Shown: one piece after another, positions 23,808 to 27,558 of the stretch
Layout: each line of letters opens with the position of its first letter
Position numbering within the stretch: the stretch's first letter is position 1
Made by a program: the position numbers and the translations under genes
Notes under the pieces: model-generated
Told to the model about the DNA's origin: nothing
What the model saw: only the letters and a program-made list of their open reading frames with translations
Database searches by the model: none
Origin: Candidatus Profftella armatura
GTDB lineage: Bacteria; Pseudomonadota; Gammaproteobacteria; Burkholderiales; Burkholderiaceae
Length of the DNA stretch: 32,000 bases
Assembly (NCBI RefSeq): GCF_000441555.1
Contig: NC_021885.1
Span: 420,001-452,000, forward strand
Direction: 5' to 3'

Positions 23808-25736
23808 ATGAAATTTATTAATAAAAAAACAAAAATCAAGAATAAAAAAACAAAAGAAACCTTATTAAAGAATGCATTTTCTTTTGATATAAAATCTAAT
23901 AGTAGAGAAGAAATCGAAAATTTAAGAAAAAAGTTTAAAATATTAATTAAACTCGGTAAAGAACGCGGTTATTTAACTTTTTCAGAAATTAATGATTTTC
24001 TTCCAGAAGATATTATCGATCACGAAATAATTGAAAGTATTATTAAAACCTTTCGATATATGGATATTTCTGTATCAGAACACGTATTAGACACAGAGAC
24101 ATTAATGCTTTCTAATATTACTAGTGATGATGATGTTGAAGAAGCAACAGAGGCAGCATTATCTACAGTTGATTCTGATTTTGGTAGAACAAAAGATCCA
24201 ATAAAAATGTATATGAGAGAAATGGGCTCAGTTGAATTATTAACTAGAGACGGAGAAATTGAAATAGCTAAACGTATTGAGGAAGGTTTAAAAGATATGA
24301 TTCATGCTATTTCTTCGTGTCCCACTACTATTATGGAAATATTAATAGCAGCAGATAAAATTTCAAAAAATGAAATTAAGATAGATGAAATAGTTGACGG
24401 TTTAATTGATAAAAATTTTTCTAGTAATAATCGTGTTATTAAAGGTAATAAAAATAATAATGAAGAAAAAATATTGATTGAATCTAGTTCAGCTGATTTA
24501 TCAACAGAACAATTGGAGAAATTAAAATATGAATCTTTAATAAAATTTTCTAATATATCTTTTCATTTTGATAAAATGAGAAAAGCATTTGAAAAAGAAG
24601 GATATAATTCAGAATCATATATAAAAGCACATAATAATATTTCTAATGAAATGCTAGGTATTCGATTTACAGCAAAAAGTATTGAAAAATTGTGCGATAC
24701 CTTACGAAATCAAATTAATCAAGTTACTCAAATAGAGAAACAAATTTTAGAAATTGTTGTCAATAAATGCGGAATGCCACGTTTACATTTTATTAAAGTT
24801 TTTCCAGAAAATGAAATTAATTTAAATTGGGTAGACAATGAAACTAAAATTCAACATGATTATAATTTGATTTTATGTCGAAATATTCCTTCCATAAAAG
24901 AATTACAGCAAAAATTAATTAATTTACAAACAGATATTGTTTTACCATTAAATGATTTGCGTGACATAAATAGAAAAATGATTGCTGGAGAAATGAAAGC
25001 TCGTAAAGCAAAAAGAGAAATGACCGAGGCTAATTTAAGATTAGTAATTTCAATTGCAAAGAAATATACTGATAGAGGTCTTCAATTTCTTGATTTAATT
25101 CAAGAGGGAAATATTGGTTTAATGAAAGCGGTTGATAAATTTGAATATCGTCGTGGTTATAAATTTTCTACTTATGCAACATGGTGGATAAGACAAGCAA
25201 TTACTCGATCAATTGCAGATCAAGCTAGAACTATTCGAATTCCAGTTCATATGATTGAGACAATTAATAAAATAAGTAGAATATCTCGTCAAATTTTACA
25301 AGAAACCGGTTCAGAACCAGATCCTTCAGTAATTGCAATTAAAATGGAAATGCCAGAAGAAAAAATTAGAAAAATTATGAAAATTGCAAAAGAACCAGTT
25401 TCCATGGAATCCCCTGTAGGGGATGATGAGGATTCTCATTTAGGTGATTTCATTGAAGATGAAAATATGTTAGCACCTTCAGATGCCGCATTAAATGCAT
25501 CAATGCGTTCTGTAGTTAAAGATATTCTTAATTCATTAACACCAAGAGAATCTAAGGTTCTTCGTATGCGTTTTGGTATTGAAATGTCAAGTGATCATAC
25601 ACTAGAGGAAGTCGGTAAACAATTTGATGTAACAAGAGAAAGAATTCGACAAATAGAAGCAAAAGCATTACGGAAATTACGTCATCCTTCTCGATATTAT
25701 AAATTAAAAATTTTTTTAGAAGGAAAAAAAAATTAA
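23808..25736 (+). CDS. rpoD: RNA polymerase primary sigma factor sigma-70
   Basis: 642 aa. Region 1.2 is [11 protein letters not shown]. Region 2 is [38 protein letters not shown]. Region 4.2 is [30 protein letters not shown]. It completes the classic rpsU-dnaG-rpoD operon order. Confidence 0.95.
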
Positions 25737-25801
25737 AAAAATAATTTTAAAAATTAATAATTTTTAAAATTAATATAATAGTTATATACTATGTAATATT
25801 A

Positions 25802-26148
25802 GGGCCTCTAGCTCATGATTGGTTAGAGCAGCGGACTCATCAAAATGGTGACTTTTTTCAGAAATGAAAATTGAAAAAAAATCTAATATTAAAGATTTTA
25901 AAAATTGGGTTAATTCAGGGAAGCCTAAGTTTATAATACAAATATGGTAATCCTGAGCCAAGTCAAAAATACATTTTTGAAAGGTGCAGAGACTAGCGGA
26001 GAGGTAAAGTCCTCTTAATTACCGATAAAAACGCCCAACACCTGAACAATAATTTATACTATTGAAGGTGATGAGATAGTCCAGTAAATAGTGAAAACTA
26101 TAAAAAAACTGAATCCGTTGGTACCGTGTTCGACTCACGGGAGGCCCA
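25802..26148 (+). tRNA. Intron-containing tRNA with anticodon CAT (tRNA-Ile2/lysidine type or elongator tRNA-Met); exons 25802-25840 and 26112-26148
   Basis: The joined exons GGGCCTCTAGCTCATGATTGGTTAGAGCAGCGGACTCAT|AATCCGTTGGTACCGTGTTCGACTCACGGGAGGCCCA give a clean 76-nt cloverleaf: 7-bp acceptor, GCTC/GAGC D stem, GCGGA/TCCGT anticodon stem, CCGTG/CACGG T stem, T-loop TTCGACT. The G1-C72 pair argues against an initiator tRNA. Confidence 0.85.
25841..26111 (+). ncRNA. Group I self-splicing intron (IC3-like, tRNA anticodon-loop type), no internal ORF
   Basis: The intron is inserted right after anticodon base 36. The exon end TCAT can pair with intron GTGA (25848-25851), giving the U.G pair at the 5' splice site. 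The core strings AATTCAGGGAAGCCTAAGT, TATGGTAATCCTGAGCCAAG and AAGGTGCAGAGACTAGCGG closely resemble, from memory, the Azoarcus tRNA-Ile and cyanobacterial tRNA intron cores. P7-like pairing is AGGTG (25982-86) / CACCT (26039-43). Two hairpins are capped by GAAA tetraloops (25855-70 and 26088-26101). The intron ends in G (26111). Confidence 0.8.
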
Positions 26149-26154
26149 TAAAAT

Positions 26155-27558
26155 TTATTCTTTCCTTTTTTGAAATAAAGAATAAAAAAAACCGTCATAA
26201 TCTTGTTTTTTATTTACAGTTGGTAACAATTGACCTGGTGAATTTAATCTAATAGAATCCTTATGATTTTTAGAAAAAATAATTGCCTGCTCTTCTGATT
26301 CCTCAAACCATAATGAACACGTTACAAATAATAATTTTCCACCAGGTTTTAACATTTTCCATAAATTATTAAGAATTTTACAGGAGTATTTAGAAAGTTT
26401 TTTAATATCATTTTTCCTTCGTAACCATGGTATATCTGGATTTCTTCTAACAACACCAGATCCAGTACATGGTAAATCAGCTAAAATTCTATCAAAATAT
26501 TTATTTTTATAAAATCTAAAACGATTATTGGTTTTTTTATTTATATCTATATATAATTTTTTTAAATTAATTTTACTTATATCTGAAAGAATTAATGTTG
26601 CTTTTAAATTTAATCGTTTTAGATTTTCTGAAATCATATTTAATCTACTTAAGTTATTATCAACCGAAATTAGTTTAATATCTGCAATTTCTAATAAATG
26701 ACAAGTTTTACCCCCCGGCGCAGAACAAGCATCCAATACATACATTCCAGAACGGATATCTAGTAATGGTGCAGCTAATTGAGCGGCTGCATCTTGAATT
26801 GAGCAAAATCCATTAAAAAATTTAGGAATTTTAGAAATAGAAATCGGGGTATGTAATTTTATAGCTAATGGTCCAATAATAGTTGTTTCCAATCCTGATT
26901 TTTTTAAAAGTTTATTATAAGAAATAAGAGTAGTTTTACGTTGATTAATTCGTAATGTTAGGGGTGGTTTTTTATGACCAACATCAAGAATATTCTTCCA
27001 TTGAAAGAAATTAGGATAAGTAATTTTAACCTGATTTATCCACCATATCGGATAATTCCAATAACTTTCATGAATATTATACATTTTTGATTTAAATATT
27101 TCCCCTTTTTTTCGAAGAAATTCTCGTAAAATTGCATTAATCATATTTTTTGCATAAGCTATTTTAGAATCAAATTGAACGACATTAACAGATTGATAAA
27201 CTATAGTATATATTTTATAATAATTTTTTAATTTATTTTCATTTTTTATATTCCTATTTTCTGTTTTAATTAATAAAGCCAAAGAACAAAATAATAATCC
27301 TTTTAATATTGAAATTTTTATCGGTTTTTTAATTAATTTGTTTAATAATATTTCAACTAACCTAAGATGTCGTATAGTATAATAAGTAATATCTTTTATT
27401 GCTCCTTTTGCTTTTTCAGAAATATTATTTTTATCTAATATTTTTGAAAAAACTTTCTTTAAAGATATTCCGTTTTTTACATATATTATCAATTTTGCGG
27501 CATTATATAAATAAAAAGATAAAGAATCGTTATTTTTTTTATTATTATTTTGCGACAT
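26155..27558 (-). CDS. rsmB: 16S rRNA (cytosine967-C5)-methyltransferase (RsmB/Sun family)
   Basis: 467 aa with an N-terminal NusB-like region. SAM motif DACSAPGGKT, catalytic DLPCTGSGVVRRNPD, and the second catalytic Cys in LLFVTCSL. Confidence 0.85.
   Translation of the reverse strand: MSQNNNKKNNDSLSFYLYNAAKLIIYVKNGISLKKVFSKILDKNNISEKAKGAIKDITYYTIRHLRLVEILLNKLIKKPIKISILKGLLFCSLALLIKTENRNIKNENKLKNYYKIYTIVYQSVNVVQFDSKIAYAKNMINAILREFLRKKGEIFKSKMYNIHESYWNYPIWWINQVKITYPNFFQWKNILDVGHKKPPLTLRINQRKTTLISYNKLLKKSGLETTIIGPLAIKLHTPISISKIPKFFNGFCSIQDAAAQLAAPLLDIRSGMYVLDACSAPGGKTCHLLEIADIKLISVDNNLSRLNMISENLKRLNLKATLILSDISKINLKKLYIDINKKTNNRFRFYKNKYFDRILADLPCTGSGVVRRNPDIPWLRRKNDIKKLSKYSCKILNNLWKMLKPGGKLLFVTCSLWFEESEEQAIIFSKNHKDSIRLNSPGQLLPTVNKKQDYDGFFYSLFQKRKE

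Follow-up and report, generated by a model that had tools for sequence, protein, structure and literature searches.

Gene organization and splice junction of the split tRNA(CAU)

The DNA analyzed here is a stretch of 32,000 nucleotides (nt) from contig NC_021885.1 of Candidatus Profftella armatura, which is called the window in the following and serves as reference for all coordinates. It contains a tRNA gene with the anticodon CAU on the plus strand between rpoD and the convergently oriented rsmB, which is interrupted by a group I intron. Profftella is the defensive symbiont in the bacteriome of the psyllid Diaphorina citri (Asian citrus psyllid), belongs to the Oxalobacteraceae, and possesses a completely sequenced chromosome of 457 kb (e.g., CP146399.1). 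Both RpoD and RsmB from the window show 100% identity to proteins recorded by NCBI for Candidatus Profftella armatura on such chromosomes. An earlier interpretation made from the letters of the window (the sequence-only reading) had proposed that a compact group I ribozyme interrupts an essential tRNA(CAU) gene and is kept under selection in a highly reduced, AT-rich genome, and this central view held in every computational test. Taken together, the data make it highly probable that the locus is the single-copy tRNA-Ile2 gene of Profftella, split between tRNA positions 36 and 37 by an Ile2.5Ug IC3 group I intron and located behind the genes rpsU-dnaG-rpoD.

The split gene extends from position 25802 to 26148 and corresponds to a precursor of 347 nt; it and all intron elements described below are on the plus strand. 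The 5′ exon (25802-25840, 39 nt, GGGCCTCTAGCTCATGATTGGTTAGAGCAGCGGACTCAT) ends with CTCAT and comprises the 5′ strand of the acceptor stem, the D arm, the 5′ strand of the anticodon stem and loop nucleotides 32-36 (CUCAU). It is followed by the intron (25841-26111, 271 nt), which ends with CTG, and by the 3′ exon (26112-26148, 37 nt, AATCCGTTGGTACCGTGTTCGACTCACGGGAGGCCCA), which starts with AATCCG and contributes loop nucleotides 37-38 (AA), the 3′ strand of the anticodon stem, the variable loop, the T arm, the 3′ strand of the acceptor stem and the discriminator A. The joined exons were folded by ARAGORN into a perfect cloverleaf of 76 nt with the anticodon CAT, and both the coordinates and the cloverleaf had been given exactly in the sequence-only reading. 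The GC content amounts to 57% in the exons, 30% in the intron and 23.5% in the window. Neither ARAGORN with default settings nor the Rfam tRNA model recognized the split gene, yielding only the tRNAs for His, Phe and Lys in the window. The upstream neighbor is rpoD (23808-25736, plus strand), and the stop codon of rsmB (26155-27558, minus strand) follows the 3′ end of the tRNA after 6 nt, as had already been remarked.

The intron is inserted in the arrangement CUCAU-intron-AA, so that the spliced anticodon loop reads CUCAUAA, with U36 preceding the 5′ splice site and G26111 (omega-G) as last base of the intron. The splice sites are fixed by the match of the spliced sequence to the uninterrupted orthologue from the Oxalobacteraceae, since 74 of the 76 nt are identical to the tRNA(CAU) adjoining rpoD in Noviherbaspirillum denitrificans, including the loop CUCAUAA; in the part corresponding to the 5′ exon, a single base of the D loop differs. 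Uninterrupted genes for tRNA(CAU) are found 33-100 nt after rpoD in N. denitrificans, in a contig of the Herbaspirillum hiltneri type and in another from the Joint Genome Institute. The earlier placement of the intron after anticodon position 36 and of a G at its end is borne out by U36, G26111 and these uninterrupted orthologues. Running ARAGORN in intron mode, which had been suggested as a check, did find a split gene, but set its boundary 2 nt upstream and called the product a tRNA-Gln (CTG). This boundary was rejected, because the intron would then follow a C and also end with one, contrary to the rule of U at position -1 and G at omega, and because it conflicts with the uninterrupted orthologues reading CUCAUAA. 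Boundary errors of this kind by ARAGORN are described in a survey of bacterial tRNA introns (Williams, 2020; bioRxiv 10.1101/2020.01.27.920355).

Structure and relatives of the intron

The Rfam covariance model for group I introns (Intron_gpI, RF00028), whose use had been proposed together with the claim of a group I ribozyme, matches positions 25848-26103 over its entire length (model positions 1-253 of 253) with 82.2 bits (gathering score 50, E=1.2e-19). A second covariance model (R1), built from the introns of nine free-living betaproteobacterial tRNA-Ile genes alone, matches positions 25889-26111 with 51.7 bits (E ~1e-15). The minimum free energy fold of the 347-nt precursor, calculated without recourse to homology, recovers the acceptor, anticodon and T stems together with most of the intron helices, and none of 100 shuffled sequences was as stable (z=-4.3). 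Scoring of covariation, another check suggested at the outset, was performed on an alignment of five introns of the subtype with helix P7.1 (two Profftella lineages, locus L075 and two Bacteroidota; L numbers denote individual loci used for comparison). In this alignment, 92.3% of the cells are paired versus 34-45% after sliding the partners, and 24 pairs are changed on both sides, a number reached by none of 500 shuffles. Compensatory changes occur in P2, P3, P6a, P7.1, P8, P8a and P9. P3, P4, P6, P7 and P8 are paired to 100%, and the pseudoknotted core of P3-P4-P6 and P7-P3-P8 is complete. Note that a MAFFT alignment (A1), in which P3 was one column out of register and P2 was scrambled, was not used for these helices, and that an alignment to model R1 (A3), which did not bridge P2, P3 and P8, was not used for pair counts. 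Among group I introns, that of Profftella belongs to the classical bacterial class Ile2.5Ug (IC3), and within it to a subtype with an additional helix P7.1. No open reading frame (ORF) for a homing endonuclease is present, as correctly stated before: the largest ORF overlapping the locus encodes 59 amino acids, and none is wholly contained in a loop.

The first paired segment, P1, consists of the exon sequence UCAU (25837-25840) and the guide GUGA (25848-25851), with U36.G25848 forming the wobble pair at the splice site, and is invariant in all five members of the subtype. This pairing had been recognized in the sequence-only reading, as had a helix of CAGGG (25916-20) and TCCTG (25951-55), which is P4, and two hairpins capped by GAAA, which carry the loops L2 (25861-25864) and L9 (26093-26096). 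In the P2 hairpin (25852-25873), which ends in the former of these tetraloops, four of the six inner pairs show compensatory changes. It is followed by a hairpin of 22 nt consisting only of A and T (P2.1, 25878-25899), which is restricted to Profftella and absent from L075, L006 and L080. P3 is formed by UUGGGU (25905-25910) and GCCCAA (26033-26038), with all cells paired in the five sequences and two compensatory pairs, and P4 by UCAGGG (25915-25920) and UCCUGA (25951-25956), which enclose J4/5, P5, P5a and J5/4. P5 contains a canonical 11-nt GAAA receptor (CCUAAG, 25924-25929, with UAUGG, 25943-25947), and P5a consists of three A-U pairs. P6 (GCC/GGU) and P6a (UCAAAAA/UUUUUGA with the loop UACA) occupy positions 25957-25985, with compensatory changes in four of the five outer pairs of P6a.

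P7 is composed of G[A]GACUA (25989-25995, bulged A in brackets) and UAGUCC (26077-26082); it is invariant in all 16 aligned introns, shows the same layout as the Rfam consensus, and would represent the guanosine-binding helix. The pairing of AGGTG with CACCT that had previously been taken for a P7-like helix does not exist as such: AGGTG at 25982-86 comprises the end of J6a/6, the 3′ strand of P6 and the first base of J6/7, while CACCT at 26039-43 is the 5′ strand of P8 and pairs with another AGGTG at 26066-70. The strands therefore belong to P6 and P8, and the true P7 is GAGACTA/TAGTCC. Between P7 and the 3′ strand of P3 lies P7.1 (25997-26024, 28 nt), with an outer stem of CGG/CCG, an inner hairpin of AGAGG/CCUCU and an A-rich 3′ strand (UAAUUA). 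Its stems are identical in the Profftella symbionts of D. citri and Diaphorina cf. continua (Profftella_Dco) and in L075, and the outer stem covaries with those of the Bacteroidota members (CGG/CCG, AGA/UCU, AGU/ACU). The 3′ part of the intron continues with P8 (CACCU, 26039-26043, with AGGUG, 26066-26070) and P8a (CAAUA/UAUUG), together spanning 26039-26070, the junction J8/7 (AUGAGA, 26071-26076), which is the same in Profftella_Dco and L075, P9.0 (GU, 26084-26085, with AC, 26108-26109), the P9 hairpin (AUAGU-GAAA-ACUAU, 26088-26101) and the terminal omega-G (26111). Lacking a P5abc extension and carrying a short P5 with a tetraloop receptor as well as GNRA loops on P2 and P9, the intron exhibits the IC3 architecture.

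A pattern for the P4-P5-P6 core, searched against 185,579 species genomes, returned 96 loci, and nearly all resolvable ones represent tRNA genes with an interruption in the anticodon loop. In nine free-living betaproteobacteria (three Pseudoduganella, a Duganella, a Neisseriaceae isolate, and metagenome-assembled genomes (MAGs) assigned to Sterolibacterium, Rhodocyclaceae, Dechloromonas and Burkholderiaceae), a tRNA(CAU) of nearly the same sequence is interrupted at this site by an Azoarcus-type intron of 203-208 nt; 99% of the cells of their common structure are paired, with 15 compensatory pairs. The insertion site 36/37 is common to these nine genes and to three with an intron of the P7.1 type. 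The Azoarcus subtype resembles the Profftella intron in its host gene, the site 36/37, the CAU/GUG pairing of P1, the order of the core from P3 to P9, the sequence of P7 (G[A]GACUA/UAGUCC), the 11-nt GAAA receptor in P5, the GAAA loops on P2 and P9, and the position directly downstream of rpoD, which applies to six of the nine genomes. In contrast, it measures only about 205 nt, contains a J7/3 of 3 nt and neither P7.1 nor P2.1, whereas the 271-nt intron of Profftella contains both. Further differences are a second 11-nt receptor in P8 (CCUAAG..UAUGG, compared to CACCUGAAC..UUGAAGGUG in Profftella) and the sequences of J8/7 (AAGGCA versus AUGAGA) and J6/7 (GUA versus GCA). P3 and P4 differ between the two by compensatory changes, and model R1, which represents the Azoarcus type, aligns only with P4-P7 and P9 of the Profftella intron, but not with P2, P3 and P8.

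An origin from an Azoarcus-type intron by insertions was considered because Pseudoduganella and Duganella, which also belong to the Oxalobacteraceae, carry the type of 204-205 nt. It was rejected on the basis of a survey of the spacing between the two strands of P7, which revealed P7.1 in L075 and many tRNA introns, and of the collinearity with L075. The sequence-only reading had likewise assumed an Azoarcus intron extended by AT-rich hairpins, which is correct only for P2.1 (22 nt, or 27 nt with its 5′ linker) as a Profftella-specific element, while the G+C-rich P7.1 is ancestral to a different subtype. L075, the closest relative found, is a 244-nt tRNA(CAU) intron from the MAG of an uncultured betaproteobacterium (CAIJKV010000205.1, L075:1001-1244, minus strand; 81.1 bits with RF00028). 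From end to end, its sequence can be aligned collinearly with that of Profftella, and it shares the guide GGUGAC, P4, the P5 receptor, P6, P7, the stems of P7.1, the outer stem of P8 and J8/7. Relative to L075, P2.1 with its 5′ linker (27 nt) is the only large addition in Profftella. The two introns differ in GC content (52% in L075 versus 30% in Profftella), with G-C-rich helices P2, P5a, P6a, P8a and P9 in L075 where Profftella has A-U pairs, and the gene of L075 encodes its CCA end and is located about 3.2 kb away from rpoD instead of adjacent to it.

Hairpins of a related form to P7.1 occur in split genes for tRNA-Ile2, -Phe, -Asn and -Thr of several phyla. Equivalents were seen in L003, L006, L008, L021, L026, L042, L045, L051, L073, L075, L080 and L084. 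The recurrent features are covariation in the stem and an A-rich 3′ strand that is conserved as YAAUAA or UAAUUA, and P7.1 is probably a tertiary-contact element. A well-known counterpart is the trnL(UAA) intron of plastids and cyanobacteria, which is also of the IC3 type, interrupts the anticodon loop of a single-copy essential tRNA, and has been kept through the extreme genome reduction of an endosymbiont. It differs from the intron of Profftella by residing in another tRNA, at site 34/35 and in another lineage, and its plastid versions often need protein factors. Ile2.5Ug is one of four classical settings of bacterial tRNA introns, all of which belong to IC3, as given in the survey by Williams (2020; bioRxiv 10.1101/2020.01.27.920355). 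As described there, this class shares with the Profftella intron its location in tRNA-Ile2 at position 5 of the anticodon loop, the U at -1 and the G at omega, and the text of the survey mentions neither insect endosymbionts nor the Profftella genome.

As a separate observation from the scan, the intron mode of ARAGORN gives a wrong identity, such as Gln(ctg), Arg(ccg), Pro(cgg), Leu(caa) or Ser(tga), to many split genes for tRNA(CAU) (L075, L006, L022, L027, L047, L078, L080, L007, L014, L015, L031, L035, L037, L040, L041, L068, L070, L076, L085, L087, L091, L094 and others). About 20 of the mislabeled loci, found in Acidobacteriota, Chloroflexota and Bacillota, would be read under the U(-1)/omega-G rule as GGACT-intron-CATAA, i.e., as tRNA(CAU) split between nucleotides 33 and 34.

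Conservation of the intron under AT drift

The same split gene is present in Profftella_Dco (AP023215.1), with an intron of 274 nt scoring 75.7 bits with RF00028. Between the Profftella symbionts of D. citri (Profftella_DC) and D. cf. continua, the introns are 93.7% identical (17 substitutions and 9 gap columns) and the exons 97.4%, compared to 80.7% at the four-fold degenerate sites of rpoD, rsmB, ahcY and metK and 82-87% in three other spacers. The intron hence evolves about three times more slowly than the four-fold sites (Fisher p=3.5e-7) and is under purifying selection. For comparison, the mean synonymous divergence (dS) reported for the two lineages is 0.605 (PMC7643613). The differences are confined to L2.1 or P2.1, J4/5, L5a, J5/4, L7.1, the tail of P7.1, L8 and the 3′ strand of P3, and the two substitutions in the latter retain pairing, converting U.G to U-A and U-A to U.G, respectively. 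P2.1 has kept its stem in Profftella_Dco and changed its loop. In four further strains from D. citri, the whole spacer between rpoD and rsmB is identical. The intron is real, conserved and almost certainly functional, and a P7.1-type intron with P2.1 would already have been present in the ancestor shared by both sequenced lineages of Profftella.

Two variable junctions deserve separate mention: the sequence of J4/5 (25921-25923) is AAG in Profftella_DC and GAA in Profftella_Dco, and that of J5/4 (25948) is UAA and CAA, respectively. In other group I introns, bases of these junctions touch the wobble pair at the splice site, which makes their variation unexpected in an otherwise frozen core. 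It was also observed that the intron of Profftella_Dco (L098:5465-5723, minus strand) is missed by the default speed filters of Rfam when five sources are searched together and attains its 75.7 bits with permissive filters, indicating that AT-rich introns of this kind can be lost in routine annotation runs.

Compared to L075, the core of the intron is 93% identical and has a GC content of 47%, whereas the periphery is 53% identical with a GC content of 20% (52% in the periphery of L075). These values agree with the earlier claim that the core has resisted AT drift by selection; as judged from the alignment, the drift has rewritten the peripheral stems by compensatory changes from G-C to A-U pairs and left the core intact.

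Identity of the tRNA and implications

The sequence-only reading had left the choice between tRNA-Ile2 and tRNA-Met, which is answered in favor of Ile2 by exclusion from the gene table, by the position after rpoD and by two base pairs of the acceptor stem. The gene table published for Profftella_Dco contains 34 tRNAs, including one tRNA-Ile (GAT) and two tRNA-Met, as well as tilS, whose presence had been named as a point to check (PMC7643613); 34 tRNAs are also given for Profftella_DC (Table 1 of PMC7643613). One of the two annotated tRNA-Met is the initiator, as evident from its C1:A72 mismatch and the GGG/CCC in the anticodon stem (Profftella_Dco table, PMC7643613), and the second resembles the elongator tRNA-Met of Escherichia coli in the anticodon stem. 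In the same table, rsmB (PADco_3530) follows directly on rpoD (PADco_3520), and no tRNA is annotated in between. With only tRNA-Ile (GAT) and two tRNA-Met listed, TilS has no annotated substrate other than the split gene; no other tRNA-Ile2 and no other AUA-decoding tRNA is annotated in the published gene table, which is in line with the single-copy status considered before. In E. coli K-12, the order of genes is rpsU-dnaG-rpoD-mug-ileX, with ileX coding for tRNA-Ile(CAU), which compares to rpsU-dnaG-rpoD-split tRNA in Profftella. The split tRNA contains the pairs C4-G69 and C5-G68 in its acceptor stem, which we take to be determinants for TilS of E. coli that do not occur in tRNA-Met, and its best full-length matches in E. 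coli are annotated as tRNA-Ile and carry CAU. The split gene is therefore assigned to a lysidine-type tRNA-Ile2 rather than a tRNA-Met, the lysidine itself being predicted from the sequence.

The demand for such a tRNA is considerable, because ATA is the fifth commonest codon in the 22 ORFs of the window that were counted, accounting for 49 per 1000 codons and 38% of the Ile codons and occurring in every ORF of this set. In combination with the lack of another annotated AUA decoder, this would render translation dependent on the ribozyme. Transcription of the precursor would start at a promoter located about 11-40 nt upstream, or else continue into the gene from rpoD by read-through. A tentative promoter-like sequence, TTTAAA-16-TATACT (25763-25790, plus strand), is located 11 nt upstream of the tRNA, such sites being no commoner than by chance (five found versus 3.3 expected in the scan). 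It is part of a 38-nt block (within 25753-25792) which is identical in both Profftella lineages, compared to 82-87% identity in neighboring spacers, and a terminator scan at the locus retrieved no candidate. The intron is then expected to fold into P1-P9 plus the extra hairpins P2.1 and P7.1, and a free guanosine bound to P7 would attack after U36, guided by the pairing of GUGA with the exon sequence UCAU. The terminal G26111 would subsequently replace this guanosine, leading to ligation of the exons and an anticodon loop of CUCAUAA, in which TilS would convert C34 to lysidine, enabling the tRNA to accept isoleucine and to decode AUA. A CCA end is not encoded in the genes for tRNA-Ile2 (26148-26151), tRNA-Phe and tRNA-Lys (10416 and 10986) of the window, but is present in that for tRNA-His, and apart from pnp, the Profftella_Dco gene table lists nothing that would match a tRNA nucleotidyltransferase or CCA-adding enzyme (PMC7643613, supplementary file 6).

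Several points weigh against this assignment. Transcription, self-splicing, lysidinylation and CCA addition are all predictions from the sequence. The overall identity of the spliced tRNA to E. coli ileX (57/76) hardly exceeds that to metT (56/77) and does not separate Ile2 from Met, and its status as only copy refers to published annotations made with tools that miss split tRNAs. The combination of a missing encoded CCA and a missing CCA-adding enzyme in the published gene table also counts on this side, as does the very weak periphery of the intron, with three A-U pairs in P5a and almost only A-U pairs in P2.1 and P6a. Because of this weak periphery and the absence of the 11-nt receptor that the Azoarcus subtype has in P8, the intron may not be able to splice on its own at physiological Mg2+.

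The last point leads to the alternative that survives best, namely that the gene is still functional, but its ribozyme has been eroded by AT drift to an extent that splicing needs a protein helper, either a bacterial chaperone or cofactor or a factor of the host bacteriocyte. The drop in GC content of the periphery to 20% from the 52% of L075, the reduction of P5a, the departure of P8 from the canonical 11-nt motif and the difference in J4/5 between the two Profftella lineages (AAG versus GAA) would be compatible with such a loss. However, conservation extends to all core helices as well as J8/7, J6/7, the P5 receptor, P7.1 and the two GAAA loops, each of them intact, the helices have been kept paired via compensatory changes, and a candidate cofactor was not identified, which renders this explanation unlikely. 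Even less probable is the more far-reaching proposal that the AT-eroded ribozyme has lost its autonomy, and that splicing of the only AUA-decoding tRNA depends on a protein of the symbiont or of the host bacteriocyte. If it were true, the host or the level of guanosine nucleotides would gain a handle on about 5% of the codons of the symbiont, and P2.1 would be a lineage-specific adaptor or stabilizer instead of junk.

That the mature tRNA is an elongator tRNA-Met or a tRNA-Gln(CUG) instead of tRNA-Ile2 appears very improbable. This option draws on the intron mode of ARAGORN, which calls a Gln(ctg) with the intron 2 nt upstream, and on the nearly equal identities to metT and ileX, but the ARAGORN boundary breaks the U(-1)/omega-G rule and disagrees with the orthologues reading CUCAUAA, and Williams (2020; bioRxiv 10.1101/2020.01.27.920355) documents this type of error. 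Moreover, an initiator and an elongator tRNA-Met are already annotated, C4-G69 and C5-G68 are present, the position is that of E. coli ileX, and only 48 of the 76 nt are identical to E. coli tRNA-Gln. A decaying relic, i.e., a tRNA pseudogene with a dead intron in a genome decoding AUA by other means, might be suspected from the missing annotation in published genomes and the lack of an encoded CCA, but is scarcely credible in view of an intron that lags behind the four-fold sites about three times in its rate of change and has no core helix broken by a substitution, exons that are 97% identical between the lineages and match free-living orthologues at 74 of 76 positions, the retention of tilS without another annotated substrate, the use of AUA for 4.9% of the codons, and the other tRNA genes of the window that likewise lack an encoded CCA.

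Regarded as a functional tRNA-Ile2 gene, the Profftella locus can be compared with those of its relatives. The closest matches of its RpoD (~74% identity) are from Herbaspirillum, Herminiimonas and Noviherbaspirillum, and the split gene would be the orthologue of the rpoD-adjacent tRNA-Ile2 of the Oxalobacteraceae, as suggested by sequence and synteny, retained at its ancestral place. As a side observation on this neighbor, Profftella RpoD has 642 amino acids, compared to 700-880 in the closest free-living homologues (~74% identity over 97% of the query), and as judged from this difference roughly 100-200 residues have been lost in the symbiont. In the Oxalobacteraceae, the rpoD-adjacent tRNA-Ile2 occurs without intron (Herbaspirillum-type and Noviherbaspirillum), with an Azoarcus-type intron (Pseudoduganella, Duganella) and with the P7.1-type intron (Profftella; loci compared: L105:4757-4835, L106:4827-4905, L107:5153-5231, L011, L061, L069 and L090). 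Three states at one locus amount to a sporadic distribution and suggest that gains, losses or replacements of the intron have happened more than once. Its retention in Profftella needs no special benefit, because removal by anything other than a precise deletion would damage the single essential tRNA.

No earlier description of the Profftella intron or of group I introns in insect endosymbionts was found in the searchable literature. The knowledge of how group I introns work is not changed by the new example, but the split gene supplies the tRNA-Ile2 missing from the Profftella annotations, which list tilS without its substrate, and a similar omission may have occurred in other reduced genomes for which tRNAscan or ARAGORN was used. 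The tRNA-Ile2 locus of the Oxalobacteraceae offers a clean system for studying gain, loss and replacement of an intron. In Profftella itself, a catalytic intron survives inside a single-copy essential gene of an obligate insect symbiont with a 457-kb genome, which represents a natural experiment in ribozyme robustness, with a periphery rewritten under strong AT pressure around a core that is still 93% identical to that of L075.

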